DNA from: Candidatus Heimdallarchaeota archaeon
GTDB taxonomy: Archaea; Asgardarchaeota; Heimdallarchaeia; Hodarchaeales; Hodarchaeaceae
Reading direction: 5' to 3'
Assembly: GCA_011364965.1 (NCBI GenBank)
Contig: RDOB01000003.1
Span: 567,822 to 631,821, forward strand
Length of the DNA stretch: 64,000 nucleotides
Notes under the pieces: generated by a model
What the model was told of the DNA's origin: nothing
What the model saw: the letters and a program-made list of their open reading frames with translations, nothing else
The model's database searches: none
Position numbers and translations under genes: made by a program
Part shown: piece by piece, positions 31,694 to 58,768 of the stretch
Position numbering within the stretch: the first letter of the stretch is position 1
How the letters are laid out: every line of letters begins with the position of its first letter

Positions 31694-31753
31694 ATGTTCC
31701 TAAAATATTATTTTTTGGGAAGATATCGTTGGTATTACACATAAACCTCTTTA
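31694..31753 (+). repeat. Cassette-boundary site type A with left hairpin flank
   Basis: ATGTTCCTAAAAT..TTTTTGGGAAGAT-ATCGTTGGTAT-TACACAT-AAACCTCTTTA. Confidence 0.8.
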
Positions 31754-31970
31754 TATTCCTAAAAACTTATTTTTTGGTTAGAATTGCCTTTATAAAATGA
31801 TATTTCTACAAAATAACATTCTGATATTTAAGAGAAAAATAACGGTTTTCAAGAGGTAAATTCAGATTTGGAGAAGAAAGAAAATTTATGTAAGAAACAT
31901 TTTTACAATTATTTTCGTATCAAAATGCTTTTAGATATCATTAAAACCAAGCTAGATAAGAAAAAAACGA

Positions 31971-32873
31971 TTATTGAGAAATATTGGGCTTTAACATGTC
32001 TCTTAATTTTACTTGTTGATGATGAAATTTTCTCTCATAGGCCACAATTTCACCTTCGATGGCATCTTTAGGACACCATTCAAAACAAGCGATACAATTT
32101 TCACAGTGATGCAGCCAGATGGGCGTAGTATTTACCACTTCAATGTTCCTCACTGGACACACACGAGCACAAATTCCACATCCATTGCATTTCTCATTAA
32201 CTTTGAAGCTCTTATCTGCTAGATGAATGAGCTCAGTAAAGGGAAGATTAGGGACTTCTGAAAGTTGCTTATAGCGTACAGAATACATAAATCTCATAAA
32301 GAGGTTATAAGGTGCCATAATTGTTTTCCATAACCTACCTGGAGTTTCAAACCAGCCTTCTTCAAAGTTAGACACATAGTTTGTTATGATTTCAAGTTTC
32401 CTTTTCCATTTAGCTACTTTTAGTTGTAGTTGAGGTGAATCCTTGTTTCCTGGGTCAAAATTCCTTAAGTCTTGATGTAAAAAGACTCGTCTCATTTTTT
32501 CTAATGGAGAGGGGGGTATGCTCAGCTGTACAGTAAATCCAGCAGCAAGGTCTCCTCCCTGATTCCTAATCATCTCTCTTAAATTTTCAATTGTTGATCC
32601 AGGTCCCCCCTTATGCGTACAAACAGCGAATACATATTTAGTACTGAGATTCTCCAATTTATCCAGAAATTGTTTAACTATCAGTGGAATACCACTGACT
32701 GCAGCAAAATAAACGGGGAATATGATCCCAATAACATCTGCTTCGGATTTTATGGACACCCTATCCATCACGGATGGGATTGAAATCAGCTTTCCATTGA
32801 GTTCTAATGCAAGATCCTGGGCGACAACCAAAGAATTTCCAGTGCCTGAAAAATAATATATCTCTTTATTCAT
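31971..32873 (-). CDS. EFR1-family flavodoxin-ferredoxin fusion
   Basis: YFSGTGNS; CxxCxxCxxxCP twice. Confidence 0.9.
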   Translation of the reverse strand: MNKEIYYFSGTGNSLVVAQDLALELNGKLISIPSVMDRVSIKSEADVIGIIFPVYFAAVSGIPLIVKQFLDKLENLSTKYVFAVCTHKGGPGSTIENLREMIRNQGGDLAAGFTVQLSIPPSPLEKMRRVFLHQDLRNFDPGNKDSPQLQLKVAKWKRKLEIITNYVSNFEEGWFETPGRLWKTIMAPYNLFMRFMYSVRYKQLSEVPNLPFTELIHLADKSFKVNEKCNGCGICARVCPVRNIEVVNTTPIWLHHCENCIACFEWCPKDAIEGEIVAYERKFHHQQVKLRDMLKPNISQ

Positions 32874-32893
32874 TGGCTATTTCACCTTATTAT

Positions 32894-33355
32894 TCAAAAA
32901 GAGATCAACCTGGTTGTATGTACTACAAGAAATAAAAAACCGACACCTGTAAAACCCCATTTGACAAATCTGATAACTTTCCATTCTAGGTCTTTTTTAG
33001 CGTCCATAGGTTTAGATTTATTCTTAATACTAAGAATAGCACCTAATGCTAATAATATTACCATAATAATTCCTAAAATCCATCCAGTAATCCAATCCGA
33101 TTGATTCACAGGTGTTGAGGTAAATCCATGAACAAGTGACAGTATCAATGCGAATTTGCAACCATTAATGTGTAAATGATAGAGTAGTACTTTCCTTTTC
33201 TCATAGAATCCATGACAAGGCTGATTATTCCATTTTTTATCAATAATTTTTAAAATAATAAAGATCGAACCTATCAGTAGCAGTATCTTGGCAGATGATG
33301 CTGATAGGTCACTGATTATTACATTTACATTTGCTATCAATTTTTTTAACTCCAT
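32894..33355 (-). CDS. Small 4-TM membrane protein with intramembrane His residues, possibly haem b-binding
   Basis: Hydrophobic helices with LH, VHG and VH. Confidence 0.55.
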   Translation of the reverse strand: MELKKLIANVNVIISDLSASSAKILLLIGSIFIILKIIDKKWNNQPCHGFYEKRKVLLYHLHINGCKFALILSLVHGFTSTPVNQSDWITGWILGIIMVILLALGAILSIKNKSKPMDAKKDLEWKVIRFVKWGFTGVGFLFLVVHTTRLISF

Positions 33356-33386
33356 TCTGTTGGATTTTTACTTTCTTCACTTTAAC

Positions 33387-33426
33387 ATATTGTCCGATAA
33401 TGGACAATATGTCTAATACTGGACAT
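33387..33426. promoter_or_regulatory. Tandem TetR operator palindromes
   Basis: ATATTGTCC-GATAAT-GGACAATAT overlapping ATGTCT-AATACT-GGACAT in the divergent promoter. Confidence 0.7.
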
Positions 33427-33467
33427 AATGGGTAATTATTTAAAGGTTTTCGTTTACTATTCTAATC

Positions 33468-34199
33468 ATGAAGAAAACAGCTAAAAATAAGTCGAACGCG
33501 TTCCAACCAGAAAAAATAACGAAAGTGGATAGAAGAATAAAGAAAAATCTTAACGCCATTTATAAATCAGCTAGTCAGCTATTTACAGAAAAACCATTTG
33601 CTGATATCACCATGGAAGAGATAGCTGAACGAGCTAATATTAGTCGGTCTACCTTATACAATCATTTCAAAAGCAAACACGAAATTTACTTTCAAATGGG
33701 ATATGACCGCTTTAAATCTGTTAATGATGATTTGATTAAACTGAAGACCGCCCCAACGACTGGTTTTGAAACGATTATGACCCTCTGTGCAGAATTGTTT
33801 AAGAATATCAATAAGAATCCCATGTATACGAGAATAGTTTCTTTGTTCCTAGTAAACAAGAATCTCCTAACCGTTGACAAAATATTGGACAACGAATTAC
33901 CTCCTCAAGAAGCTCAGAACATGTTCGAATTACCTGACATCGAAATCATGGCCAAGTATTTGGAACAACTCCGTAGATATGAAGTCCTTTGGGCTGAACT
34001 TATCGCTAAAGGGATTTCTGATGGATCGATTATCACAAACTTAACACCAATTCAGCTAGCGCATTACTTATTCCTTATAATTAATGGAACCTTTGACCAG
34101 ATGATCTTAAAGCAATATGTTCTACAAAAGTTTGAATTGACGAATGAGATGATCTTTGACAAGACAATGAACATCATAAAACGAATACTTCACGAATAG
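33468..34199 (+). CDS. TetR/AcrR regulator
   Basis: ITMEEIAERANISRSTLYNHFKSK. Confidence 0.93.
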   Translation: MKKTAKNKSNAFQPEKITKVDRRIKKNLNAIYKSASQLFTEKPFADITMEEIAERANISRSTLYNHFKSKHEIYFQMGYDRFKSVNDDLIKLKTAPTTGFETIMTLCAELFKNINKNPMYTRIVSLFLVNKNLLTVDKILDNELPPQEAQNMFELPDIEIMAKYLEQLRRYEVLWAELIAKGISDGSIITNLTPIQLAHYLFLIINGTFDQMILKQYVLQKFELTNEMIFDKTMNIIKRILHE

Positions 34200-34241
34200 C
34201 AGTTTCAAAAGGTATACGGTTTAAGACCCCTAGATTCTTAA

Positions 34242-34270
34242 TGCGTTGGTAATACGACATCCAAACAACT
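34242..34270 (+). repeat. Cassette-boundary site, type C
   Basis: TGCGTTGGTAA-TACGACA-TCCAAACAACT. Confidence 0.7.
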
Positions 34271-34303
34271 AAGAGCGAAAAAACCATAAATTTCTATATG
34301 AAG

Positions 34304-34390
34304 AACTCAACAAACGTCTAAGCGATTTTATTAACTAAAAATATGATAAAGAGTTGCTCTTCCTCTGAATCTATACAGAAAACGAAGTTC
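34304..34390 (+). repeat. 87-bp direct repeat, copy 1
   Basis: Near-identical to 38167-38253. Confidence 0.85.
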
Positions 34391-34439
34391 CAGACATTTT
34401 GTGGTGATTTTGTCTGCTTTTAAGAGATAATGAGGCTAG

Positions 34440-35063
34440 TTACAATTCATGTATTTCAAACAACTTTTTGGTTAAACTAAGTAGATAATCGGAGAATTCT
34501 TCTTCATTCTTAGCGGGGAAATTTCGGTAGAACACAAAATGATGGATAGCTAGATCAATTATAGTGGAATTAGCTATTATCTCTTTTTTGGTCATTTTTC
34601 TGGGAATTATACCCAAATCGAATAAATTTTCAAAAACAGGGATGACACTAATTACTTCTTGAGCAATCGCTCGCGAATCTTGAAAAACAGTTTGATCACT
34701 TAGCATGGCGATTTCCATTGCCTTAGTAAGTTCTATATTTTCCTTATGTGAAGTAACAAATGCTTCAAGTAAATGTTTGAGCTCCAGTTCCCAATTTGAT
34801 TTAGTAATCATTGGCAAAACTTTTTGGAGATCTACATTAAAATCAGCTAAAATAGATTTAAGAATGTCTGATTTTCCTCTAGGAAAATATTTGTATAATA
34901 AACCTATACTAACTCCAGCATCCTTAGCTATGCCATGATTAGTAACTTGTAGGTAACCTTTCTGTTCAATTAATTTTCGAGTAGCTTTTTTCAATCTAGA
35001 AATTTTTTGAGGCTTATTTCTAGTTATTATTGTTGGTTTTTTCTCAGATTCTTTTTTATTCAT
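34440..35063 (-). CDS. TetR/AcrR regulator
   Basis: IAKDAGVSIGLLYKYFPRGK; ATG 35063 preferred because the longer start falls inside the operator. Confidence 0.9.
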   Translation of the reverse strand: MNKKESEKKPTIITRNKPQKISRLKKATRKLIEQKGYLQVTNHGIAKDAGVSIGLLYKYFPRGKSDILKSILADFNVDLQKVLPMITKSNWELELKHLLEAFVTSHKENIELTKAMEIAMLSDQTVFQDSRAIAQEVISVIPVFENLFDLGIIPRKMTKKEIIANSTIIDLAIHHFVFYRNFPAKNEEEFSDYLLSLTKKLFEIHEL

Positions 35064-35110
35064 TTTTTTTACCTTTGAAGCCGGGAATATCAAGTATTTT
35101 TTTAACTGCT

Positions 35111-35176
35111 TTAGTGACACATCATCACTAACTTAATAAATATTTAGGAAAATTATTAGTGACGGATCGTCACTAA
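35111..35176. promoter_or_regulatory. Two TetR operator palindromes
   Basis: TTAGTGA-CACATCA-TCACTAA (35111-35131) and TTAGTGACG-GAT-CGTCACTAA (35156-35176). Confidence 0.75.
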
Positions 35177-35223
35177 ATCATCTAATTATTAAATCAATAC
35201 AAGAAAAAAACGGAGATAAAAAA

Positions 35224-36369
35224 ATGTCTATTAAAAAGAATATAATTACGAAACTTCCAGATTCTTGGCAAGATAGGATTTTGGCTCGTGTAATAGCTAG
35301 TAACGAATGGAAACGTATTCCAACATTTCAAATGCTGTTCGAATCATTTGTTTTAATGGGTGGCGCACGTGATGATATCACTACAGTCTTTACGAATGCA
35401 AATGATCTTAATACTGACTTTTATAAAGTTGCACGTGAACAAGCTAAAGAAAGAGAACAAATAGCCGCTAAAGAAGTTAATCCTTCAAATAAACGAATAG
35501 AATATCAAAAAGCTTTACTCTTATATTTTCTTGCAGATTGGGTGATTTCTGAGGAATCATTATTTAGAGAGAATTATAGCGATTTATTACGCGTTTCTGA
35601 AATAATTGATTCATTAGGAACAATTCCTACAAAAAAAGTGTATTTAGAATGGGAGGAAGGACATATAGCTTGCAGATTACGAATACCAATAAATCAAAAT
35701 AATGGACAATTTCCTCTAATGGTCCTTGTACAAGGGAATGACACAGTTAAGGAAACTTTATTATTTGTTGAGGATAAGTTAATAGATCAAAATATCGCTG
35801 TTTTGAATGTGGACCAACCTGGATGGGGGGAAAGTTTAATGTCAGGGAATCATTATGTTATTTCTATGATATATGATGCTGATAAGATAACAAATGAGAT
35901 ATTCAAGTTTTTAGCAACCGTGGAAAGGATTGATATAAATAGAGTAGGAGTGTTTGGATTTAGTGGAGGTGGTACGATGGCTACTATTTTAGCAGCAGCA
36001 GATCAAAGATTCAAAATCATGGTTTCATATGGTGGAGCAATATATGATTTAGGAAAAGCAATCAAAGGTTTACCAGCAATGCAAAAACGACAACTGCTTA
36101 AACATTATGGGACGTCAAAAAATCAATTAAAAAAACTTATTCCAGCATTTAATTACGATCGAATCTTACCGCAAATTCAATGCGATTGCTTATTGATTCA
36201 TGGAGAAAAGGATACCTTAGCTCCAGTAGAGACCATACATAAAGCAGCAGAATTAATCTCGGGTCCTGTTGAAAAGCGTATTGTCCCTGGTGGTAATCAT
36301 ATGTGCTCAGATACAATGATGGAAATACAGATACCTTTTATGATCTCATGGATAAAAAAGAAAATATAA
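35224..36369 (+). CDS. Alpha/beta hydrolase (FrsA/DUF1100-like)
   Basis: DQPGWGES, GFSGGG nucleophile, HGEKD, GNH. Confidence 0.88.
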   Translation: MSIKKNIITKLPDSWQDRILARVIASNEWKRIPTFQMLFESFVLMGGARDDITTVFTNANDLNTDFYKVAREQAKEREQIAAKEVNPSNKRIEYQKALLLYFLADWVISEESLFRENYSDLLRVSEIIDSLGTIPTKKVYLEWEEGHIACRLRIPINQNNGQFPLMVLVQGNDTVKETLLFVEDKLIDQNIAVLNVDQPGWGESLMSGNHYVISMIYDADKITNEIFKFLATVERIDINRVGVFGFSGGGTMATILAAADQRFKIMVSYGGAIYDLGKAIKGLPAMQKRQLLKHYGTSKNQLKKLIPAFNYDRILPQIQCDCLLIHGEKDTLAPVETIHKAAELISGPVEKRIVPGGNHMCSDTMMEIQIPFMISWIKKKI

Positions 36370-36583
36370 TAAATTAATCCCGAACCATTTAAGGAATCTT
36401 CATACACGTATTGGGATTGGATTCACACCTCTATCAACAAATTGGTATTTTGGAGTATCTTTCAGCACGCCAATAGTAATAATAAGGATTAGTTGGTAAT
36501 ATTTCTAAGATAAGAAGGTACTAAAAAGACTGCACACACCAACCGTTTCAGATGTATATATTCAACAGTTTCGTTCGATAAAC

Positions 36584-37303
36584 TCAATGTAAACTTTTTT
36601 CTTTAATAAATCCTGTTAAGGTCGAGATTAGAGAGAGACTCATGCCGAGAAGGACTATCAGTAATGTTTCAAAGTAAAATTTCAAAACATCTTGAAAAAT
36701 AATATTGAGAACGACAACTATAGAAAGTTCCATCAAGAAAAAGAACACTAATAAACATGATCCAGCGATAATTTGTGCTACATACAAAATGAGATTTTTG
36801 AGATATGTACTTTTCCCAATATTGGAAGCAGATCGAACTGAAGCAAAAAAGGAGGCCTTGTCATTTAGTAAAAAGAACGGTACTCGCTCTGTGTATGCGC
36901 CAACGAAAATGACGAAAAGGAAATAGCTAACAAATAATAACGGAGTTACGTTTACAATAACAAGTACTATTCCCACACTTAAAGGAATTCCCGGCCACAG
37001 AACTCCCCATTTGATAAATTTCATCTTGGATTGATGAGAAAAATGTAAGGGTTGCTGAGAAGCGATCCTAGAGCCAAGTAGATTAAAATAACTAAACCAA
37101 GGCCAGGTGATGATGAAAGAAGCAAGGGGCAATAAGAAAAAAGGGACAAATTCATTGCCAGGACCCTCAAGAGTGAAATCCCAATTAGAACCATAAATAA
37201 TAAGGGAAATAGTCATTATCCAGATGAAATAATAGATGTAATTCTGGAGCAGCGCTCTAGGGAAGTGTATTTTTGTTGTGATCTGAATCATTTCTTTCAC
37301 CAT
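36584..37303 (-). CDS. Hypothetical multi-pass membrane protein
   Basis: 239-aa ORF with about 6 TM helices. Confidence 0.7.
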   Translation of the reverse strand: MVKEMIQITTKIHFPRALLQNYIYYFIWIMTISLIIYGSNWDFTLEGPGNEFVPFFLLPLASFIITWPWFSYFNLLGSRIASQQPLHFSHQSKMKFIKWGVLWPGIPLSVGIVLVIVNVTPLLFVSYFLFVIFVGAYTERVPFFLLNDKASFFASVRSASNIGKSTYLKNLILYVAQIIAGSCLLVFFFLMELSIVVVLNIIFQDVLKFYFETLLIVLLGMSLSLISTLTGFIKEKSLH

Positions 37304-37375
37304 TCCATTAGGGAAGTATATTTACCCTTCTGATCTAGCTTCAGTTTCACAATCAGCCCCCTCTCTAAACTCAAG

Positions 37376-37732
37376 TTAGGATTTTTTTACCTCCAAGACA
37401 ACTGCTTCAATATCCGAGGCCTTTATTGTTCTTCGTCCCTTTTGTTGGGCGTAAGTAACAGCTTTTTTAGCAATATTTGTAGCTACTCGTACAATATCAG
37501 CCTCAGGATCTTCTGGTCTTCCAAAACTTATTCCTGTTTCTGATTCCTTTTTTATAATTACAGAAGGGAATTCCTTAAAGTTAAAATCTCGTTTCAAGAT
37601 CTTTCCTAAAGTATCAGTGGCAATCCTTGAAAATCGAGCTGCCCCACTATGACGAAGGATCCATTCACAGAATAGTCGTTCTTCATAACTTATATCTTTA
37701 TTTTGATTTTCCATTTTTATCGCATCAAACAT
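37376..37732 (-). CDS. Archaeal histone-fold protein with a 34-aa insertion
   Basis: ILRHSGAARFSRIATDTLGKIL and IAKKAVTYAQQKGRRTIKASDI match the two halves of an HMf-type histone. Confidence 0.8.
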   Translation of the reverse strand: MFDAIKMENQNKDISYEERLFCEWILRHSGAARFSRIATDTLGKILKRDFNFKEFPSVIIKKESETGISFGRPEDPEADIVRVATNIAKKAVTYAQQKGRRTIKASDIEAVVLEVKKS

Positions 37733-38166
37733 TCCTAAATAATACCTGAAATATGCTTGCAGTTAAACTGAATACCACCGTCAAATAATATAAATTTATT
37801 TTCAACTCATCTTTGATTTTGTAGAAATTTCTGAGGAATATCGCCATAATACTAGATGGAATTTTGAAGCAGTATTTTTGCAATGTAAGCTTCAGATCTG
37901 ACCAACTCTGGTTCACATTGTTTTACGTGTAGAAAACATAGTGGTTGGTATTTGTATTCTCCTTTTTGTTATGATTGCGCAACACGAAGGTAAGCGGAGT
38001 CGAGAATATTTCGAGAGGTTATGGAGGGGAGGATTTTTTATTTTTTCCAGCTATAACCCGCTAATCATTTTTAATTTTTTTAATTTTGGTTAATTAATAT
38101 AATTATTCTCTTTTTCGATTACCCTATTCTCTTGTGATATCATAAGTGTTGCTTTGTTAAATAAAA

Positions 38167-38253
38167 AACTCAACAAACGTCTAGGCGATTTTATTAACTA
38201 AAAATGTGATAAAGAGTTTCCCTGTCCCTGAATCTATAGAGAAAACGAAGCTC
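38167..38253 (+). repeat. 87-bp direct repeat, copy 2
   Basis: Near-identical to 34304-34390. Confidence 0.85.
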
Positions 38254-40527: not shown

Positions 40528-40938
40528 ATGTATATGGTTGACAGTAATATTTGGGCTTATTATTTTGATGTAAATCTTCCTGAACATAAATCTGTTGTCT
40601 CTTTTCTTGATCCACAAATTAATTCGGGAAATATCGCAGTAAGTACAATTATAATAGTGGAGGTCGCTCATTATCTTTTTAAAAGACTAGGTTCTATAGA
40701 GGGATTTGAAAAAAGCAATATTTTTCAATTAGGTCAATTTGAAACATTGGAGTTTACTTCACGTGACTTGGATGAGTTATTAGCCATTATGAAACGAGTT
40801 TCACATTTTGGATTAGGTGGACGTGATGTGACAATACTAGTTTGCATGAAAAAAGCCGGGATTACACAGTTGGTGACTCATGACCAAGCTTTTAGTCGAA
40901 TAAAAGATATAGAAGTAATCGATCCAGTAGTTCTCTAG
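40528..40938 (+). CDS. vapC: PIN-domain VapC toxin
   Basis: VDSN, E, RD, THD. Confidence 0.9.
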   Translation: MYMVDSNIWAYYFDVNLPEHKSVVSFLDPQINSGNIAVSTIIIVEVAHYLFKRLGSIEGFEKSNIFQLGQFETLEFTSRDLDELLAIMKRVSHFGLGGRDVTILVCMKKAGITQLVTHDQAFSRIKDIEVIDPVVL

Positions 40939-41012
40939 ACATCTTAGATTAATGTAAGGATTAAGTTATATTAAGCATCTATATATCAAGATTTAGAAAT
41001 ATCATTGCATTA

Positions 41013-41041
41013 TACGTTGGTATGACACACGAACCTCCGTA
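41013..41041 (+). repeat. Cassette-boundary site, type A
   Basis: TACGTTGGTAT-GACACAC-GAACCTCCGTA. Confidence 0.88.
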
Positions 41042-41059
41042 TAATGCATGGAAAAAGAG

Positions 41060-41479
41060 TCATAGCAGATATTCAAGTTTGAGTTTTTTATCAGGGCCGT
41101 TTAATAAAGCAATAAAGAGCTCTAAGAACTGTCTTCCAATTAATGGTTCTGTACAATGGGGAGTTGTATCTACCTCTACAATAGTTTCAGTTAACAATTC
41201 TTTTATTTCAAGTAAAGAGTGAGCTGTCCTCAAAGTAATTTTTTCCCCTGTTATAGTTTCGACAATGGGAATTTCATCTTCTACGACTTCAAAAGTGCTT
41301 AATTCTAGTTCCTCATAAATTTTTTCTGGAATTACCAGAAATCCATCATAACCTGTATCTATTAATACACTTATACTCTTTTGTTTTGATCCGAGAAGAT
41401 TTTTGACAATTAAATTTGGAATTTTAGGTGCTAAAATGTCACTAAATACTGTTTTTTCATAGTTATATTCCACATTCAT
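41060..41479 (-). CDS. Clan AA (retropepsin-like) aspartyl protease
   Basis: LIDTGY and LIGRQFL motifs. Confidence 0.85.
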   Translation of the reverse strand: MNVEYNYEKTVFSDILAPKIPNLIVKNLLGSKQKSISVLIDTGYDGFLVIPEKIYEELELSTFEVVEDEIPIVETITGEKITLRTAHSLLEIKELLTETIVEVDTTPHCTEPLIGRQFLELFIALLNGPDKKLKLEYLL

Positions 41480-41865
41480 TATTGCACTCTCCTACCAAAT
41501 CCGAATGTTCTTTTCTTCACTTCTTTACCTACCTGAAAGACAAAACAATGATCTCCCTCGAGATTAAGGGTTTTAATTTTAGTTAATATCGGATCCAAGG
41601 TGTCACCTGAGATTAAAAATTCCCCACGACCGATTAAAACCCACTTCCCATCGTATTCTTTAAGCAAGGTCTCTTTCAATTTTCTGTAAGTTAGTAGATT
41701 AAGCTGTCGCTGTTTATCTTTTGCACTAAATGGCTTATTCTTTTCCATCCAATCCTTCATCGCTTTAGTGATCGCTTCACCTAATTTAAGCCCTTCTTGA
41801 GCCGCTTTGGCCTTAAAACTGGTATAGGTGTCTGTATCCACGTCTCTTATCAATACATTTGGCAA
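41479..41865 (-). CDS. RHH + DUF5678-like protein, putative antitoxin partner
   Basis: NVLIRDVD..FKAKAA (RHH); LLKEYDGKWVLI. Confidence 0.72.
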   Translation of the reverse strand: MPNVLIRDVDTDTYTSFKAKAAQEGLKLGEAITKAMKDWMEKNKPFSAKDKQRQLNLLTYRKLKETLLKEYDGKWVLIGRGEFLISGDTLDPILTKIKTLNLEGDHCFVFQVGKEVKKRTFGFGRRVQ

Positions 41866-41960
41866 TCAAAAAACTCCTTGACAATTATTAACATTCGTTA
41901 TTAATAATATATAATGTTAACATATATATCTTTTGTTATCATCTAAGTAGGTAGTCGTAT

Positions 41961-42000
41961 TTCGTTGGTTATGACTGATTTTTATATAAAACATACATAC
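41961..42000 (+). repeat. Cassette-boundary site, type B
   Basis: TCGTTGGTTATGACTGATTTTTATATAAAAC, identical to the copy at 43687. Confidence 0.85.
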
Positions 42001-42109
42001 GTCTCAAAATAGTAATGTAAAAAATTAATGAGTAATATCTTGAACTAAATAAACTGAAGGTAAATTCCTAATAAAACAAAGAAGGTTTGTTAAGAATGGA
42101 TGATAAACT

Positions 42110-42805
42110 ATGGTATCCGATCGAGTGAAAATCTTACTACTAATGATTTTTTACATGCCTGTTGTATTCATCATTTTTGCCGCGATAATATTCATTCCCG
42201 CGAATGATTGGCTTTGGCTCGAAGGATGGCTGTTTATAGGTGTGTTTATTTGTTATGCATTCCTGTATACTCTTTATGCACTGATTAAAAACCCTGAAAT
42301 GTTCATGAAGCGAGCTAAATATACCACCGATGATCCCGATCATAAAGCGTTCTCGGATAAAAAATTACTAGTGGGAGGCCTAGTTTTGCTGGCTTTTATG
42401 GTGATTTTTCCTGCGTTAGAACACGCAGCTGGCAATCCACCCCTTCCATGGATGATCGAGCTAGTAGGTTTTCTCGGGCTGATCATTGGACTGGTTGGGA
42501 TGACTTACGTCAATATTGTCAATCGATATGCATCCAAGGGCCTAGTCATTCACAAAGATCATGAGCTGATAACCGCTGGCCCATACCAGTACGTGCGGCA
42601 TCCCCTCTATGCCTTGGTTATACCTTTCATTCTAGGCACACCACTTCTGCTGGGATCATTCATAGGATTCCTCGCATCCTGGTCGTTCATCCCGCTACTG
42701 ATCTATCGGATCAGGATAGAGGAACAGATGTTGATCGATCACTTACCAGGCTACATCGAATATATGCAACAAGTCCCGTACCGACTGATACCGAAAATGT
42801 ACTAG
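42110..42805 (+). CDS. ICMT-family membrane methyltransferase
   Basis: HELITAGPYQYVRHPLY, RIRIEEQML, Y...VPYRLIP; higher GC than its flanks. Confidence 0.9.
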   Translation: MVSDRVKILLLMIFYMPVVFIIFAAIIFIPANDWLWLEGWLFIGVFICYAFLYTLYALIKNPEMFMKRAKYTTDDPDHKAFSDKKLLVGGLVLLAFMVIFPALEHAAGNPPLPWMIELVGFLGLIIGLVGMTYVNIVNRYASKGLVIHKDHELITAGPYQYVRHPLYALVIPFILGTPLLLGSFIGFLASWSFIPLLIYRIRIEEQMLIDHLPGYIEYMQQVPYRLIPKMY

Positions 42806-42889
42806 TTTTATAAGGTTTACTCTGTCGTTTAAAAGACTGAGAATTTTGCCCATTAATCTTCTTGACCCGTCGTCTTATAACGAACTTGT

Positions 42890-42918
42890 ATCGTTGGTAT
42901 TACATACGAACCTCCGTA
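42890..42918 (+). repeat. Cassette-boundary site, type A
   Basis: ATCGTTGGTAT-TACATAC-GAACCTCCGTA. Confidence 0.88.
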
Positions 42919-42942
42919 TGTTCGATGAAAAAATGTATATTT

Positions 42943-43308
42943 TCAAAGAAATTTCTTAATATATCTCAAAACATAATCTAAAGTAGGTTCTTGGGATTCT
43001 ACCACCCTTGAATCGATATGTAGATGATGAGGAAAGGTTTTTATCTCGAAATGATGAGGAGCATTGTCCCATCGTACAATAAGATCATTCAAAATAAAAT
43101 TATAACGATATTTATCCTTTTGGAGAGAATCCTTCGTAAACACAACAAATTCAAACCCATCGAATCTGGAATCTCCTTGAAAAGTCGCATTAATCCATAT
43201 CTTTAGTGTACCTGCATCCTGATCGATTTTATAAGAAAAAGAGTAATCCGCAAATATATCTAAACCTTTCAAATGGTCTTCAAGCTTGTTTAGATATTCA
43301 ATTATCAA
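42943..43308 (-). CDS. DUF6516-family putative toxin
   Basis: YRY...RWDNAPHH...TFPHHLH. Confidence 0.8.
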   Translation of the reverse strand: MIIEYLNKLEDHLKGLDIFADYSFSYKIDQDAGTLKIWINATFQGDSRFDGFEFVVFTKDSLQKDKYRYNFILNDLIVRWDNAPHHFEIKTFPHHLHIDSRVVESQEPTLDYVLRYIKKFL

Positions 43309-43573
43309 GCTTGACTTTCTCCAACAGTATTAAACGCTTCTTGATTCTATCGCGAGTCTCTAAATCAGCAAACCATTCAAAAAAGATTTGATCGTCTCCT
43401 AGTTCACCATTGTTCCACTTTTTTTGAAAATCTTCAGAAGAGAAATGGAATTTTTTTTCAAAGGTTAATAAATGTTGATTTAGTGATACAATTTTCTCTT
43501 TTAAGCGATTCACTTCTTTCTGTAACGTTTCTTTTACAATAGCCGAACTCTCATCAGGGATAGAGATTGTCAT
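43298..43573 (-). CDS. Putative antitoxin partner of DUF6516
   Basis: FEKK...SSEDF..KWNNGELGDD..FFEW; overlaps the toxin start. Confidence 0.75.
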   Translation of the reverse strand: MTISIPDESSAIVKETLQKEVNRLKEKIVSLNQHLLTFEKKFHFSSEDFQKKWNNGELGDDQIFFEWFADLETRDRIKKRLILLEKVKLDN

Positions 43574-43656
43574 ATTAGCTCATCCATAATACAAAATTGG
43601 TCTGATAATTATTTAGACCTTAGATTTAAAAATCTTTTATTCTTTTTATTCTTAGA

Positions 43657-43725
43657 ATATTCCCATAAATTTTTTTTAGGAAGATATCGTTGGTTATGAC
43701 TGATTTTTATATAAAACGTATATAC
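43657..43725 (+). repeat. Cassette-boundary site type B with left hairpin flank
   Basis: ATATTCCCATAAA-TTTTTTTTAGGAAGAT-ATCGTTGGTTATGACTGATTTTTATATAAAAC. Confidence 0.85.
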
Positions 43726-44161
43726 ATTAATAATTTATTTAACATTAAGAAATTATATGAAACTATGTAGGTAACAAATTGGAGTTGAAGGAAGGTTACT
43801 TGATCGTCTTCTAATGATAGTTAGCTAATCAATTTATAATGAAAACAAATGTCATTAATGGCTGGTTTAGATTATAAAAATATATACCACGGTATATACG
43901 CGATTAGAGATAATTCCTACATAGGTCTACAATTACTCGAACTTACTCGAAGGTTCTATCACTACTTTCATCTTCTCCTTCGTCTTTTCAAACAGAAAAA
44001 TCCCGCAATTCTGGCAAAGATCGCTAATGTGGCAAACTCCGCAGCTTAAAAGATAACTTGCTTTTATTCTGTACATTAGCTATTTGGATATTCCATTTTC
44101 AATAGAATTATAAGAATAACTTCTCATTTCCGCTTACAACGATTTAGAGAGAAAAAATACA

Positions 44162-45274: not shown

Positions 45275-45478
45275 GAATAGCATTTAAGTGAAAAGATTAA
45301 AATTATTCGCTTTTCCCTCTTAATTCAATAGCCTCTGAACTTCGTAAAAGAGTTATTTAGTTAAGAAAATTATATACTAAGGTATATACCAGCAAAAAAC
45401 ACTCACCAAATCGATATCCATTATTAATTATTTCTTTAATGCAATTATTTTTACTCTTTGTCTATTTTGTCGGAATTT

Positions 45479-45691
45479 TTAGTGTGTTATTTCATACCGT
45501 AAGTAGTTGCGAAAGGCAAATAATTTATTTACTCGACCTTTCAAATTGGGATTAGCAAAGTAAGATTCAACATCCTCAGGGATTTGCCCTATTGCATAAA
45601 GATAGCAACCAATAGTGCCTTCTGCCTTTCCTTGAAGTCGTAACCATTGTCCAAATTCATCAAAATAAGCAGGATTAGGTGTTATACTCAT
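45479..45691 (-). pseudogene. Truncated tyrosine recombinase N-terminal (SAM-like) domain
   Basis: FGQWLRLQGKAEGTIGCY...AFRNYLRY pattern; no catalytic domain follows. Confidence 0.6.
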
Positions 45692-46095
45692 TTGAATATC
45701 TCCTCACCACTTTGATCTTTACCTTCAAGCAAAGCATGTATATCGAATTGGCTAGCACCCTGTCTCTTGAGTAATCCTTCAGATAATCGTTTAATCTTTT
45801 CGATTTCCTCATTCTTTTTTATTGCATCCGACTCTAAACTTTCTGCTAGTGCATTAATCCTTGATTTTAATTCTGCTTCTTCATTTGACATACCTCTTAA
45901 GGAAGTGTCAATAGTTGGATCTAAAATAGGAGAATCATGCATAGCAGCATTTAAACAAGCTCTTATTAAGCCAGCAAGAGTTCCGAACCCATGAGTTTCT
46001 GCTAATTCGTTATAAGCAGTACGTTCATCTGGTGTCAGTTTCATCGTAAAGAGTTTACGAGATTTATTAGATTTTTTATTCGTTGAACTAGACAT
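45688..46095 (-). CDS. RHH/CopG-like DNA-binding protein with a coiled coil
   Basis: KLFTMKLTPDER..YNELAE..GFGTLAGLIR; ATGA overlap with the integrase fragment. Confidence 0.65.
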   Translation of the reverse strand: MSSSTNKKSNKSRKLFTMKLTPDERTAYNELAETHGFGTLAGLIRACLNAAMHDSPILDPTIDTSLRGMSNEEAELKSRINALAESLESDAIKKNEEIEKIKRLSEGLLKRQGASQFDIHALLEGKDQSGEEIFK

Positions 46096-49128: not shown

Positions 49129-49157
49129 TACATTGGTTATACGACAGCTAAACAACT
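49129..49157 (+). repeat. Cassette-boundary site, type C
   Basis: TACATTGGTTA-TACGACA-GCTAAACAACT. Confidence 0.7.
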
Positions 49158-49264
49158 GAGAGTAAGAAGAGGGGAGCCTCAAGGAAAAACAAGCCAATCT
49201 ATGCCCCTCCCTTCCCCCTAAACAAGCCAAGAGGAGAAAAATGCATACGGAGAAAAAATACAGG

Positions 49265-49366
49265 TTAATATAATGAGGTAATGACCACCTGAATATAATG
49301 ACAACGCATCTGGTTACCACGCAACAAGATTTGATAAACCGTCCGAACAGAAGGAGGAAAAGGCAA
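49265..49366 (-). pseudogene. Internally deleted copy of a small wHTH gene (copy A)
   Basis: MPFPPSVRTVYQILLRGNQ fused to MRCHYIQVV; same RBS and start context as 61458. Confidence 0.8.
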
Positions 49367-49789
49367 AACCCTCCCTGACTCTGAATATGGACAAGAGATT
49401 ATTGTTTAATAGGATGAATAAACTATTAGACAATTCAAAGACTACAGAGGATCCCAACAGATATACATGAAGAATTTTCATTAACTCAAACTAGGTAGCA
49501 GGACTTTATCTGAGATTAATATGAAAATTATTAATATATCAAATCTTTCTATTCGAACCAATTCATAATCTGATTTATTTTCGATTTCTGACACTCTTTA
49601 CAATGAGAAGAATAAAAAAAGAGAGCAGACACTCGCTTTACCTTAATCCCTAGTCGACGCGTTTTGTAGACCAAGATCTCGCAGAAAACTCCTCGCATCC
49701 AGTTGGACAACTTCCGTGAAAGCTTGTGTTTATGTTTCGGAGGTTCATTTTCGCAGACTTCGTTATTTTGATTAAAGTTTAACAGTCCG

Positions 49790-50431: not shown

Positions 50432-50439
50432 CTCCTTTT

Positions 50440-53970: not shown

Positions 53971-54314
53971 TAGGAATTCCCCTGTAAATATCTACAAATA
54001 ACAGATTTTCTAATATCCCAATTTATAGCAAGAATTAACCTCATTATCGGGATTTAACTTCATATAAAAAGATTAAGTCTTAAAATGTACTTAAAATGTA
54101 GTAGTTGGTTTGATTTGTCTTAAAAAAGAAGAAGATTACATTATTTCTAAGGTAATGCTACAAAAAGACATATAAAAATGTTTGGTCTATAAATTGTGAA
54201 TAAAAATCTAAATTAACAAAAGAAATCAGATTTTTACTGACAAAAGTAATAGAGATGATTTTGCATTTTTTTTTCATGGTTGAATTCAATTTAATTGACT
54301 CCGTAGTACACTAC

Positions 54315-54343
54315 ATCGTTGGTTAAGTTTTGAAACGTATTTA
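54315..54343 (+). repeat. Cassette-boundary site, divergent right half
   Basis: ATCGTTGGTTA-AGTTTTG-AAACGTATTTA. Confidence 0.55.
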
Positions 54344-54400
54344 CTATGGTTTATTCCTGTTATATACTTCGTACGATAATTGGATCAGGAATAATAGGTC

Positions 54401-55291
54401 TTATTTGTAGTATTTCAAAGCTATTTCCTCTTTTCCAGGTTCAAAATTATCCCAGAACTCCTTGGCGGGGTGACGCAAATCATAGTCAACTCGTGTATCG
54501 TGTAGAACTCGTGAACAATAAGGATCTCCTTGTGCAATGGTATGCTCCATTGTTAAAATTAAGCTCTCATCACGCATTTTTGCACCTTCGTAATCGCCAT
54601 AACAACAGACAAGGTATTTAAGTTCAGAATCTGGCAATTCTTCCAAGGCGTCAACCCAAGAACAATTGTTATTGCGATAGGCATATTTTCCTTCATTGAG
54701 TAATGCATGGAATATAACCCATTCTGATGGTTTGTCTCCGGGTTTTATACGATTTTCCAATAGAGTTTCAAGGTCAACAAAATCACTCTCATAATTTTTT
54801 CGTCGTTCTTTCTGGAAACACGTGATATATTTCTTGTAGAGCTTAATCGCCTCTTCTCGTCCTATAGTTTCGATCAAGGCCACAAGATTGTAGTATCTAG
54901 GAAGGAGGAATGAATGTAAATAATCTTTATTTATGACATTGATTTTTTCATTGCTCCACTCGATTTTCTCTGGTACTTGAAGATTGTGTAAATAGAAAGT
55001 AAGACTTAATTGAGCTAATTCAGGATTTCTTCGCAGGTAATCGAACTCGTCGATTAGTTCATCGAAACTGATTCCTAATTTCTTGATTAAATTTTCCTGC
55101 ACTAATTTTTGGTATTGATTCTGTAAATTTAACACATACTTCGTTACCACACTGGGCTTTTGATCATCTATAAATCCAAGTATAAAATTTAGTCTTTTCA
55201 AAACCTCTCGTTTAGCATTAGCATAAACTTGTATTTCTACTTCAAATTCAAGAGCGTTTGACATTGCTTCACCAGTTCTTGAGACTTTCAT
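54401..55291 (-). CDS. L-2-amino-thiazoline-4-carboxylate hydrolase-like protein
   Basis: C...CCYGDY...TIAQGDPYC pattern. Confidence 0.72.
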   Translation of the reverse strand: MKVSRTGEAMSNALEFEVEIQVYANAKREVLKRLNFILGFIDDQKPSVVTKYVLNLQNQYQKLVQENLIKKLGISFDELIDEFDYLRRNPELAQLSLTFYLHNLQVPEKIEWSNEKINVINKDYLHSFLLPRYYNLVALIETIGREEAIKLYKKYITCFQKERRKNYESDFVDLETLLENRIKPGDKPSEWVIFHALLNEGKYAYRNNNCSWVDALEELPDSELKYLVCCYGDYEGAKMRDESLILTMEHTIAQGDPYCSRVLHDTRVDYDLRHPAKEFWDNFEPGKEEIALKYYK

Positions 55292-55353
55292 TGTTTTTTA
55301 AACCTCAATTTATTCATAATTATAATTAAACCTGATAAAGATATAGCAGAGTA

Positions 55354-55665
55354 TTAAGTTTCTATTCTTTCCAGTTTGAAACAAACTGGTCTTTTCCCAT
55401 CTGTACAGCTAGTGTACATTATATTTGGTTCTGTCCAACTATGTTCTCCACCGAAAGCTAGGACTAGAAGGTCTTTGTATAAATCATGCCACGCCCAACC
55501 ACAGAAATTTTGAGGTTTTTTCAACCCTTCCACCAGAAATTCTTGTCCTTCTTCAAAGATGGAACATATCGTTACGATTTGACCTGAACAGGGAGCGAAA
55601 AGATCATGTCCGACGACATCTTTGGGGCTAAACTTTTTTATCACAGAAATTTTTATTTTATCCAT
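55354..55665 (-). CDS. TIGR04076-family protein
   Basis: C..FEEGQEF...KP.NFC.WAW.D, CTDG.RPV.FKLERI. Confidence 0.85.
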   Translation of the reverse strand: MDKIKISVIKKFSPKDVVGHDLFAPCSGQIVTICSIFEEGQEFLVEGLKKPQNFCGWAWHDLYKDLLVLAFGGEHSWTEPNIMYTSCTDGKRPVCFKLERIET

Positions 55666-55789
55666 TACTGTAACTACCTCCTTTTTTTCCGCTTAATGTG
55701 CAATCCATTCTTTTTTATAATTTAACTCTTTAATGACTCTAAATGCTCCATAATACCATTCTACACAATTTGTATAATTATGTGACTGT

Positions 55790-56107
55790 TTACGTTTCAA
55801 TTTTTTCAATAGTGAAAACCACGGGTCTCATACCATCCGTACAGCACACATAAACCTTTTGTTCTCTCCAATCTTTCCCCGCACCTAACGCTAATGTAGA
55901 AACGTCCTTATAGATGTCATACCATGCCCATTCACAAAAGTCTTTGGGTTTCTTCATCTCTTCTACTAGGAATTCTTGTCCATCTTCAAACAAAGAACAG
56001 ACCGATATGACTTTCCCGGAAGGACTCGTCATCTCCTGTCCAAATACTTCTTCAGGCTTAAAACGCCTAACAACTGAAACCTTGAGTTTTGTCACCTGTA
56101 GTACCAT
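55790..56107 (-). CDS. TIGR04076-family protein, tandem paralogue
   Basis: Same motifs as 55354..55665. Confidence 0.85.
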   Translation of the reverse strand: MVLQVTKLKVSVVRRFKPEEVFGQEMTSPSGKVISVCSLFEDGQEFLVEEMKKPKDFCEWAWYDIYKDVSTLALGAGKDWREQKVYVCCTDGMRPVVFTIEKIET

Positions 56108-56416
56108 CTTTAAATTCGATTCTTTAACAATAAATATTGATTTAGTGAAATTTCTCTAGTTCAAAACTCTTTATCTGTATAATAAACTTTTAGCTTCAGG
56201 CAAAAGAGCGTAGGTTGACTAAACGAAAATTTTGTTGCCATTGTCGATTCATTCTGAGCTATGATAGTTGATCAAAAAACAACGACTCTCCATTTAGTCA
56301 TATCCACAATGACCCTTAATTGGATTGATGAAACTATTAATTATCAACTTTCCTAACAACCCCATTGCTCCCCACAACTTTACATATAACGAATTGATAA
56401 AGATTTATAATCAAAC

Positions 56417-56445
56417 ATCGTTGGTTATACGACATCCATCTAAAC
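56417..56445 (+). repeat. Cassette-boundary site, type C
   Basis: ATCGTTGGTTA-TACGACA-TCCATCTAAAC. Confidence 0.75.
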
Positions 56446-56505
56446 AATATTATTATTCATTATATACATATTAATATTATTTCCATTCCTTCCCGTTCAC
56501 GACTA

Positions 56506-57636
56506 TTGAAGGGAGCAAAAAACTTCTATAGTAAAATGATGAGGAGAAACCAAATGACAGCAGAAAAAAACTTTCGAGGAACCTATCTTCCAGAGAAAGA
56601 ATTTAGCTTGCTAAGAAACATAGAATTAAAAATTGAGAGACCGATATTTAGAAGAAAGAATAAGCGATCAGAACTAGATATATCACATGATACAAGAACT
56701 TATTTTGACATAGATTGGACAAAGGTAACAGCACTGAGTATATTTAACACGAAAATGTCATTTCTACCTGAAGAAATATTTGAACTTCTTAACCTAGAAG
56801 AACTGGAATTGAGTTGTAACCATATCACATCGTTACCAGAAGCAATCGCCAAGTTGACAAACCTCCAAAAACTGGATTTGAGTTATAATCAGCTCACATC
56901 GTTACCAGAAGCAATAGCTAAGTTGACAAACCTCCAAAAACTGAATTTGAGTGGTAATCAGCTCATATCGTTCCCAGAGCCAATAGTCAAGTTGACAAAC
57001 CTAAAAACTCTATATTTGGGTGGTAATCAGCTCACATCGTTCCCAGAAGCAATAACAAAATTGACAGAATTAAAAACTCTATATTTGGGTGGTAATCAGC
57101 TCACATCGTTCCCAGAACCAATAACCAAATTGACAAACCTACAAGAATTGAATTTGGATTCTACTCCATTAATATCGTTCCCAGACACAATAACAAAGTT
57201 AACAAATCTAAAATCTCTACTTTTGGGTGATAATCAGCTCACATCGTTCCCAGACACAATAACCAAATTAAAAAACCTACAAGAATTGGATTTGAGATGT
57301 AACCAGCTCACATCATTACCAAATACAATAGCCAAATTGAAAGACCTACAAAAACTGGATTTGAGTTATAATCAGCTCACATCGTTCCCAGAACCAATAA
57401 CCAAATTAGTAAACCTAAAAACTCTCAATTTAACTAGTAACCAGCTAACAACATTACCAAAAACAATAACTAAATTGAAAAACCTAGAAAAACTTATTTT
57501 GAATCAAAACCAGCTCAAATCGTTACCAAAGTCAATAGACAAACTAAATCACTTAGAAGAACTTATTTTGTATAATAATTATGGTTGTAATTTAAAAAAC
57601 CAATCAGAGAGAGTAAAAAAGATATTGAAAATTTGA
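56506..57636 (+). CDS. Leucine-rich repeat protein
   Basis: About 12 repeats of 23 aa (LxxLxLxxNQLTSxPExIxK), visible as 69-bp DNA repeats at about 56790-57570. Confidence 0.95.
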   Translation: MKGAKNFYSKMMRRNQMTAEKNFRGTYLPEKEFSLLRNIELKIERPIFRRKNKRSELDISHDTRTYFDIDWTKVTALSIFNTKMSFLPEEIFELLNLEELELSCNHITSLPEAIAKLTNLQKLDLSYNQLTSLPEAIAKLTNLQKLNLSGNQLISFPEPIVKLTNLKTLYLGGNQLTSFPEAITKLTELKTLYLGGNQLTSFPEPITKLTNLQELNLDSTPLISFPDTITKLTNLKSLLLGDNQLTSFPDTITKLKNLQELDLRCNQLTSLPNTIAKLKDLQKLDLSYNQLTSFPEPITKLVNLKTLNLTSNQLTTLPKTITKLKNLEKLILNQNQLKSLPKSIDKLNHLEELILYNNYGCNLKNQSERVKKILKI

Positions 57637-57790
57637 TAATCAGTTTTATTTAACAATATTCTAGCCCTATCCTCAATTATTTACTTCTCCTTTTTCAATA
57701 AATCCTTAATATAAACGCTAGAATTCCAACTTTTCTATTCACTTACCTATTGTGTAATTGTCTTTATATCAATAATTATTATGAATCATT

Positions 57791-57819
57791 TTCGTTGGTA
57801 TTACACCCGAACCTCCGTA
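57791..57819 (+). repeat. Cassette-boundary site, type A
   Basis: TTCGTTGGTAT-TACACCC-GAACCTCCGTA. Confidence 0.88.
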
Positions 57820-57886
57820 TATTCCATTTCTTTTAGATTACAAATTTTCTGAATGAAGATAAAAAGGAATCTAATTAAGGGGTTAC

Positions 57887-58345
57887 TTAATCGATATCTT
57901 TTTTGGCCCATTCCACCAAATCATCACTAAGATACAGATCAGTTTGTAATTTTTCCAAATATTCTTGATAGCTGTCTCTTGTTTGAATTATTTTTTGAGT
58001 GTAAAGAAGTTTTAATAAACCTAGGGTTCCGATAACTAAGATACCCCTCTTTTTTGCTATTTTCCTTAGTGCCAAGTCATCTGTTGCTATCATTGAGTTC
58101 TTTTCAATGGCAAGTGATATTAATGATATGTCAGTTGTACTAATACTCAAAGATTCTGCCTTAGTTTTATGGGATGGAACCTCTATATTTATCCAAGAAG
58201 GAATCTTAGTTTTTATCCATTTTTTTGAAAACTCTTCAATAACATCGGGTGTGGTGGCATAAGTCAGATTTAGCTGGTGGAGTTGTTCTAACAATTCAAG
58301 ATATGTGAAACTGCTTAAGACACTCGTGTCTAAAATAAGCATCAA
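57887..58345 (-). CDS. PIN-like toxin (DUF3368-type)
   Basis: ILDTS, E, TDD..LR, GTLGLL. Confidence 0.82.
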   Translation of the reverse strand: MMLILDTSVLSSFTYLELLEQLHQLNLTYATTPDVIEEFSKKWIKTKIPSWINIEVPSHKTKAESLSISTTDISLISLAIEKNSMIATDDLALRKIAKKRGILVIGTLGLLKLLYTQKIIQTRDSYQEYLEKLQTDLYLSDDLVEWAKKDID

Positions 58346-58346
58346 A

Positions 58347-58622
58347 TCACTTCAAAAGGTTCTTAGCGGCTTGAAATTCTTCTTCAGCTTCTTTTGATGA
58401 AGTTGGACCTCCTGATCTAATTAAACGACGTTTACGAAATTCATCTAAGAACTTGTCCACCTTCAAACCTGCAAGTTCAGCAGATTTTGATAGACTAATT
58501 TTTCCTTGTTGATAAAGTTCAAAAAGAATAAGTAAATGATTTTGGTGTTCCAGATCCTCTTTGGATAATCCTGATAACTCAAGTAATTGGCGTGAAACCT
58601 TAATCGATATTTCTTCAGTCAT
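58347..58622 (-). CDS. UPF0175-family antitoxin
   Basis: LYQQGKISLSKSAELAGL. Confidence 0.85.
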   Translation of the reverse strand: MTEEISIKVSRQLLELSGLSKEDLEHQNHLLILFELYQQGKISLSKSAELAGLKVDKFLDEFRKRRLIRSGGPTSSKEAEEEFQAAKNLLK

Positions 58623-58710
58623 TATACTCGACCTTATAGAAACATAGCTTGATTTTAATTAATATTATCTATTAAATTAAGTTTCCTATTCCTGATCTGA
58701 ATGAATTTTT

Positions 58711-58768
58711 ATTCCCATAAAAAATTTTTTTAGGAAGATATCGTTGGTAGTACATACGCACCTCCGTA
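58711..58768 (+). repeat. Complete cassette-boundary site (hairpin flank + type A)
   Basis: ATTCCCATAAAAAATTTTTTTAGGAAGAT-ATCGTTGGTAG-TACATAC-GCACCTCCGTA. Confidence 0.88.

Follow-up and report, generated by a model that had tools for sequence, protein, structure and literature searches.

Integrative mobile elements exploiting Xer (IMEX) and the pdif modules of Acinetobacter are small units, often carrying toxin-antitoxin (TA) pairs, which have short sites with a 6-bp centre and A/T-rich inner arm ends and no recombinase of their own. Hodarchaeales are among the closest known archaeal relatives of eukaryotes. The available parts of three published accounts cover canonical attC integrons in archaea (PMC9668308), viruses and transposons of Asgard archaea (PMC8813620) and tandem integrated elements (PMC8371274). 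Here, we analyzed a window of 64,000 nucleotides, the final 64 kb of contig C11 of a Hodarchaeales genome (2.97 Mb, 87% complete), in which small gene units, or cassettes, lie in tandem and are separated by the 6-bp word CGTTGG (the core). No published description of a CGTTGG site or array was found in a literature search that did not cover supplements.

Positions 30857-61047 probably form a cassette array that is not an integron, with crossover most likely taking place within CGTTGG. As far as we searched, the system is confined to one genus of Hodarchaeales. In the mechanism that we propose, strand exchange would occur inside CGTTGG, and a free circular cassette would bear a single site made up of a left sequence (the flank), the core and a right sequence (the arm). 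The integrated cassette would then have the arm at its left end and the flank at its right end, and every joint of the array would be a hybrid of two neighbors. The likeliest enzyme would be a tyrosine recombinase particular to the genus, whose gene follows a small ribbon-helix-helix (RHH) gene; it would act in trans on recombinase-less cassettes, and our confidence in this enzyme is lower than in the system itself.

Gene flux in Asgard archaea is central to the debate on gene acquisition by the archaeal ancestor of eukaryotes, and few mobile-element mechanisms have been defined. The locus offers a testable system, consisting of a putative 6-bp crossover word, catalogues of cassette ends and a candidate two-gene module that is intact in three genomes of the genus.

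Joints and end sequences of the array

CGTTGG occurs 21 times in the window where 8.85 copies are expected, a count attained by none of 100 shuffled sequences. Thirteen copies are on the plus strand, and 12 of these lie within 30857-61047, an interval in which the genome-wide density of 0.95 per 10 kb per strand predicts 2.9 plus-strand cores (Poisson P(>=12) = 4.8e-5). By the list of open reading frames (ORFs), all 12 are intergenic and separate gene units, while both minus-strand copies of the same interval (33753 and 36900) are located inside ORFs. Gene orientation is mixed across the units and core orientation is constant. The region is thus a tandem array of cassettes with its sites in one orientation, an arrangement by which integrons are recognized, and the arrays of relatives are alike.

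The bases to the right of the core sort into families, types A, B and C. Type A (CGTTGG-TATTACACACGAACCTCCGTAT) is found at 30857, 41015, 42892, 57793 and 58742 and, in degenerate form, at 31727. All four minus-strand TA-like units had been predicted to start with this arm, and indeed GAACCTCCGTA is exact in each of them (30873, 41031, 42908 and 57809); it recurs with one mismatch at 58758, and each copy lies 10 nt past a CGTTGG. Type B, which has the TATA-box-like TTTTTATATAAAAC inside, is located at 41963 and 43688. Type C is found at 34244, 56419 and 61047, and a further copy, at 49131, is decayed. On the other side of the core, the flank TTCC..GGAAGATAT directly precedes the cores at 31727, 43688 and 58742, each time closing a TA-like unit as the original prediction had described; GGAAGATATCGTTGG is exact at 31718, 43679 and 58733, and a TTCC..GGAA dyad lies ahead of all three copies. 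Flank, core and arm were also correctly reported as joined at 58711-58768 and 31694-31753, the arm at 31733 being degenerate (AAACCTCTTTA). Next to the core, the joints favor C at -7, A at -6, A at -2 and W at -1 on the left and T,T,A,T on the right, at no more than 0.5 bit each. Because these positions carry so little information, a recombinase-binding dyad is putative.

The joints, cassettes and other units of the array are as follows (coordinates, strand, content):

30857-30884, plus strand: joint 1, CGTTGG core and type A arm CAATACCTACGAACCTCCGTAT; its left side is the upstream region of an esterase gene
30857-31726, minus strand: cassette 1 (870 bp), with a 95-aa ORF (30914-31201) and a DUF433 antitoxin-like gene (31300-31620; Pfam)
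31694-31780, plus strand: arm-plus-flank stretch, with a dyad flank (31694-31726), core (31727-31732), degenerate type A arm (31733-31754) and, behind this arm, a second, decayed dyad (31752-31780)
34244-34263, plus strand: joint with type C arm CGTTGGTAATACGACATCCA (family D15)
41015-41962, minus strand: cassette 4 (948 bp), with core, type A arm and ORFs of 139 aa and 128 aa, without a dyad flank
41963-41994, plus strand: joint with type B arm containing TTTTTATATAAAAC (D18), heading a plus-strand ICMT-family methyltransferase cassette (42110-42805)
42892-43687, minus strand: cassette 6 (796 bp), with core, type A arm, TumE toxin gene (42943-43308), 91-aa partner (43298-43573) and dyad flank (43657-43687)
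43688-43725, plus strand: joint with type B arm, sharing 31 identical bases with the type B joint at 41962
45479-46095, minus strand: recombinase module remnant, with an RHH-like ORF (45688-46095, 135 aa) and a truncated tyrosine recombinase (45479-45691)
49131-49150, plus strand: decayed joint, CATTGG and type C arm (D15)
54317-54322, plus strand: joint with arm TTAAGTTTTGAAACGTATTT, of a family also present in G010 and G008
56419-56438, plus strand: joint with type C arm, heading a plus-strand LRR-protein cassette (56506-57636)
57793-58741, minus strand: cassette 10 (949 bp), with core, type A arm, PIN/DUF3368-like gene (57887-58345), UPF0175 gene (58347-58622) and dyad flank (58711-58741)
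58742-58769, plus strand: joint of the ~60-bp composite site, where the flank of cassette 10 meets the type A-like arm TAGTACATACGCACCTCCGTAC
61047-61066, plus strand: final strict joint, type C arm (D2, D8, D12, D15) followed by a ~450-nt repeat element

Within this list, the stretch 31727-31780 looks like a cargo-less arm-plus-flank unit.

Reassortment of cassette ends at the core

We compared the window with the 21 other genomes of the genus and with loci fetched from them. The 28-bp type A word (at most three mismatches) was found in 12 of the 21 genomes and in none of 19 genomes outside the genus, and a reversed control gave no match. A 23-nt word of flank plus core had no match in the JGI metagenomes, where a 28-nt type A word matched five loci, none with a second joint within reach. 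Similarity between genomes begins or ends at the core. For the esterase gene with its upstream region (29033-30862), a match to G008:C35 at 91% identity runs through 30862, where the core ends, and beyond this point the window, G008 and G021 have three distinct arms. Positions 41014-41991 are 88% identical to G020:C147 (11969-12949); this match opens with the first core base, and the DNA to the left is unrelated. The match of 57802-58747 to G010:C1 (87% identity) terminates with the core. When four flank copies are aligned, they are similar through CGTTGG (CGTTCG in one) and dissimilar beyond. Thus, the flank travels with the unit on its left and the arm with the unit on its right, as the original prediction had it.

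Hybrid sites at the core, likewise predicted, are common. Of 116 distinct intergenic joints in the window and the fetched loci, 40 belong to the type A family, and the flanks before them fall into 25 clusters. Flank families represented by three or more joints stand before 2-11 arm families each, under a loose clustering (Hamming distance up to 4 in 14). Additionally, there are cargo-less units of ~50-60 bp consisting of an arm and a flank, for example 4138-4077 of locus L016 in G010 and 14470-14522 of L048. In G016 (L174, G016:C13, 983), the esterase gene is preceded at its 3' end by CGTTGG and a type D arm, and therefore the unit bordering the window array behaves as a cassette elsewhere.

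TA cassettes had been proposed to have their own matched left and right ends, and this was found to be true in one direction. The dyad flank occurs with a type A arm in all five cases that could be judged, three in the window, one in G018:C91 and one in the G010 orthologue of cassette 10 (four cases if the orthologue is counted once). The reverse did not hold, as type A arms are mostly found with other flanks and with non-TA cargo. Twenty of the 31 type A sites outside the window have a CGTTGG downstream, some of these copies being coding and hence not joints, and the flank stands before it in one, with one more degenerate. The flank copy in G018:C91 belongs to a 780-bp DUF433 and DUF5615 cassette with a type A arm at its start; other copies are in G010 (the cassette 10 orthologue), in G005:C211, where the left end is beyond reach, and, in part, in G020:C118. 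A diverged flank, TCCTAAA..TTTTTTTAGGAAC, terminates the unit of the 569-aa esterase. At three mismatches the flank word is near noise, a reversed control also matching twice. Type A arms lie mostly behind the 3' end of a gene reading toward the arm (23 of 32 sites with an ORF) and also accompany genes of 290-415 aa.

Judged from these sequence comparisons, flank and arm are real cassette ends, and their pair is one combination of many and no private signature of TA cassettes. For a free type A/dyad cassette, the ~60-bp composite of flank, core and arm models the site fairly well. The type A arm (28 bp, usually at the 3' end of genes reading toward it) is a generic cassette end whose role would resemble that of a species-specific attC, and the TTCC..GGAAGATAT dyad would be the promoter-side end in one subfamily of leftward-transcribed cassettes.

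The flank had also been described as forming a hairpin. The dyad can pair, yet ~66-nt sequences of flank, core and arm fold no better than shuffles (plus-strand z-scores -0.45 to -1.55, minus-strand ~0). Folding both strands of 13 joints revealed neither a shared hairpin nor an inverse core, and attC-like folding, judged without an attC model, was rejected in view of the lack of shared structure and of significant z-scores. One exception, 41005-41055 (z -4.4), is due to a local 9-bp inverted repeat that is missing from the G020 orthologue. In six copies of the dyad compared by eye, TTCC/GGAA is invariant and the inner positions vary without compensation. The weak conservation beside the core, like the lack of a shared fold, is more in keeping with a simple core recombined as double strand than with attC.

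These results bear directly on a canonical integron, or a cluster of attC sites lacking integron-integrases (CALIN), in which IntI would act on folded attC sites. Such a system has arrays of short cassettes with one site orientation, TA cassettes included, and enrichment in Asgard metagenome-assembled genomes (MAGs) is reported in the available part of PMC9668308. However, the joints have neither an inverse-core/core pair nor an attC-like hairpin, gene orientation is mixed, and the cassettes bring their own promoter-like arms. On the TIGR02249 model (cut-off 265), five of six tested tyrosine recombinases score 55-70 bits, below the 160 bits of the host XerA, and recombinases of ~290 aa seem, from their length, too short for the extra IntI domain. 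We give hardly any credence to an integron at this locus. A transposon bounded by terminal inverted repeats and duplicating a 6-bp target was also rejected, as the start of the arm and the end of the flank are not inverse copies by eye. An Rfam scan of 28000-64000 (E<=1) returned a chance miRNA match only, with no rRNA or tRNA piece, and a tRNA or rRNA origin of the type A arm was dropped for want of Rfam support.

The true 23S rRNA trailer of the genome reads ...CTGATGTCTGTACGTTCGTTGG (...GTACGTTCGTTGG). C12 and C8 carry five spare copies of the 23S tail, which terminate in ...GATGTCTGTA-CGTTGG (...CTGATGTCTGTA-CGTTGG) with unrelated DNA after it. Many flanks of window-type arrays resemble this tail end (..ATGTCNTTNA-CGTTGG). 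The 3' part of the target gene is repeated at each joint of the 23S array (C12, C8) but not in the window, where the joints share CGTTGG only.

The region is present in 20 public runs from 7 studies, of which four runs were compared, all as assembled contigs. One X16 contig joins 41961 to 43687, and the two cassettes between the type B joints (41962-43686) are exactly absent. This junction falls in a 31-nt identical stretch, a length that matches the word size of the contig assembler. The deletion may therefore be an assembly artefact or a product of homologous recombination, and it counts as weak support. Additionally, two X19 contigs diverge immediately past 58747, the end of a core, and other loose contig ends are found at 57793 and close to other repeats.

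Alternatively, CGTTGG and its arms could be transcriptional punctuation, that is, shared promoter and terminator modules, rearranged by ordinary homologous recombination among the short repeats. In line with this, TTTTTATATAAAAC is found in type B arms that stand before plus-strand genes, type A arms come after T-runs where converging genes end (23 of 32 sites with an ORF), 86-113 nt separate the dyad flank from the antitoxin start codons downstream of it, and the X16 deletion lies inside 31 identical bases. Against it, core orientation is constant even where gene direction changes (12 of 12 cores in the window), and most joints share 6 bp only, too short for homologous exchange, yet breakpoints are found there. 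The 23S tail copies end at CGTTGG too. Furthermore, the flank motif is missing from all other promoters of the genome; its three genome copies and both copies in the fetched loci all sit at cores, which rules out a general promoter element away from the core. We regard punctuation as very improbable.

Candidate recombinases

G010, G008 and G011 each encode a further tyrosine recombinase of ~290 aa behind an RHH-like ORF of 128-156 aa. At all four readable loci (L058, L074, L065 and L059), ~60-110 bp separate the RHH gene from a CGTTGG joint on its upstream side, the G010 site being masked. At a joint-like site of L058 (G021:C94, ~2870-2880), CCGAGG takes the place of CGTTGG between a typical flank (GATGTCATTTAA) and a typical arm (TTATATTCAAA), and is a variant or mutated core. 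The recombinase family was found in 4 of the 21 other genomes of the genus (E<=1e-20) and in none of 61 genomes from the rest of the class. Public protein collections hold 44 members, and the six that are named are all on MAGs labelled Heimdall- or Hodarchaeota. Viral contigs gave no close relative of the recombinase, with 23-25% identity at most.

The window itself retains the first 70 codons of a recombinase (45479-45691), 54% identical to residues 4-71 of the G010 integrase (E 2.1e-20), in a remnant with the gene order of the intact modules; further fragments are present in G002 and G003. All six genomes with a family member or fragment have type A arms, as do 7 of the 16 without. Because related genomes are not independent, this co-occurrence is only suggestive. 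In the public assemblies, variant contigs have breaks at 45350 and 46142, where the 795-bp unit with the recombinase remnant begins and ends.

A search with PF00589 of G000, G010, G008 and G011 returned only Xer-like proteins and proteins of ~290-333 aa. Serine recombinases were found in none of G000, G010 and G011, and four matches were in G008 only. A second integrase at the start of contig C1 (C1:230-1219) was rejected as the enzyme, there being no CGTTGG in the preceding 229 bp; its relatives are sporadic (G002 and G019, with fragments in G017 and G003).

The state of the recombinase genes would also fit another origin of the array, decayed tandem integrative elements. Larger elements with an RHH gene and an integrase would have inserted repeatedly at CGTTGG, deletions would have left mainly addictive TA genes amid residual att sites, arm and flank would be remains of the element ends, and the small units would be immobile. 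Most recombinase copies are indeed fragments (the window copy and those in G002 and G003), the large cassettes 3 and 7 (6.8 kb and 10.6 kb) contain decayed cores (49131), and tandem integration at a single locus is known in archaea from the available part of PMC8371274. This origin does not account well for four unrelated TA pairs that share both ends in units of 780-950 bp, nor for one unit that is found in differing contexts in other species. Moreover, repeated exchange at the core, and not decay alone, is needed to explain cargo-less units and the 25 flank clusters in front of a single arm family. Decayed elements are thus an unlikely explanation.

Lastly, the joints could be recombined by the host XerA, the cassettes being Xer-exploiting elements like IMEX or the Acinetobacter pdif modules. 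The XerA orthologue (C9:581481) scores 276 bits on the NCBIfam XerA model (cut-off 220), on which the module recombinases reach ~100-119 bits. XerA is the sole tyrosine recombinase found in nearly every genome of the genus, and arrays are also present in genomes where the RHH-associated family was not found. The ..A-W CGTTGG TTAT.. logo resembles the centre of dif, ATAA-6 bp-TTAT, and some joints are near-palindromic, for example GTCGTATAA-type flanks versus TTATACGAC arms. At the window joints the arms are complementary at 1-6 of 12 positions, and dyad symmetry beside the core is weak. No conserved dif-like 11-6-11 site with a CGTTGG spacer was found, left arms are poorly conserved, and a dedicated recombinase module adjoins the joints. 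The most palindromic CGTTGG site of the genome (C11:552470-552497, CTTGAGTTAAA-CGTTGG-TTAAATTCAAA, 8 of 11 arm positions) is located ~15 kb ahead of the window and was rejected as a dif candidate, as it is present in only 1 of the 21 other genomes. We consider recombination by XerA quite unlikely.

Several points weigh against the reading that we prefer, a cassette array recombined at CGTTGG by an RHH-associated enzyme. The module is intact in 3 of the 22 genomes of the genus (G010, G021 and G011), with a more distant module in G008, and its orientation relative to the core varies. Positions beside the core carry little information, and the junction of the X16 deletion lies in identical sequence. 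The left border of the orthologous cassette in G010 and the site upstream of the G010 recombinase module both read N. Additionally, many of the genomes compared are incomplete and, being related, do not count as independent samples, and circular cassettes and precise empty joints are predictions of the model.

A wider reading, which we offer tentatively and hold to be possible rather than probable, is that Hodarchaeales run an integron analogue of their own. Double-strand, simple-core CGTTGG cassettes would be moved in trans by a lineage-specific module of an RHH protein and a tyrosine recombinase; each chromosome would have several arrays, including one with its anchor in the 23S rRNA trailer, and TA pairs, regulators, enzymes and surface proteins would be shuffled continuously between species.

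Cargo, surroundings and comparison with known systems

The TA-like units have Pfam matches to DUF433 (31300-31620), TumE (42943-43308) and UPF0175 (58347-58622), with a weak PIN/DUF3368 match for the UPF0175 partner; the 91-aa partner of TumE and the 95-aa partner of DUF433 gave no assignment. The pair in 41015-41962 has weak matches only, RHH-like for the 128-aa ORF and aspartyl-protease-like. These matches point to a TA identity for part of the type A units. Cargo of the other units includes TetR and PadR regulators, hydrolases, a methyltransferase, an LRR protein, a VapBC pair and a 1176-aa FG-GAP protein. The LRR protein gene (56671-57591) consists of 69-nt tandem repeats, and one X16 contig is without exactly one repeat (57001 joined to 57071).

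Type C arms are followed by a repeat element of up to ~450 nt (61047-61500, 62364-62621, 63662-63839, 49131-49481, 34244-34390 and 38158-38253), whose copies are 67-88% alike and retain CGTTGG in some cases only; its minus strand has remnants of a small gene that is winged-helix-like by eye. A promoter-like module, TGGTTTnGATTAnAAAAnTATATAC, often accompanied by GGTATATACC, is found at 43863, 45353, 46148, 47020 and 49033, and the copy at 43847-43899 has dozens of matches across the genus. A second partial copy of the 3' part and trailer of a VapC (PIN) gene (28563-28906 versus 40600-40939, 83-88% identity) lies just left of the esterase unit, and therefore the cassette-like region probably extends to the left of 30857. 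Small GTPase genes of the Ras/Rab, RagA/Gtr1 and Arf kind, which are typical of Asgard genomes, are located at 2-655, 2249-3637 and 18054-18326, adjoining a histidine kinase and a response regulator.

The array resembles sedentary chromosomal integrons and CALIN, as described in the available part of PMC9668308 (Ghaly et al. 2022), in its small cassettes of accessory genes with one site orientation and no recombinase of their own, in a lineage-specific site (here type A) at the 3' end of unrelated cargo, in its TA cassettes and in the frequent lack of an intact integrase. Unlike integrons, the site in the window is a 6-bp core with short A/T-rich sides, without a folded attC or an R''/R' pair. 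The cassettes have cassette-specific sequence at both ends, mixed gene orientation and promoter-like arms; there are several arrays per chromosome, and the candidate enzyme is a ~290-aa protein encoded behind an RHH gene and not IntI. Searches for attC integrons rely on conserved attC sequence and fold, according to the part of PMC9668308 available, and should miss CGTTGG arrays. If this is true, archaeal accessory-gene arrays may be under-counted.

Tandem elements at the 3' ends of tRNA, tmRNA and rRNA genes share with this system direct-repeat att sites, a tyrosine recombinase and frequent loss of the integrase (PMC8371274, in its available part), and the spare 23S rRNA tail copies of this genome, which end in CGTTGG, are of the same kind. 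In contrast, the window array has no duplicated gene tail and only 6 bp in common between joints, and window-type units can be as small as ~50 bp (cargo-less) to 0.8-1 kb, with ends that reassort combinatorially. Similar to IMEX and pdif modules, the cassettes are small, often TA-bearing and recombinase-less, and their sites have a 6-bp central region, with inner arm ends rich in A/T. They differ from those modules in that no 11-6-11 consensus was found, that the sites are direct and not alternately inverted, and that a dedicated recombinase module stands at the joints.

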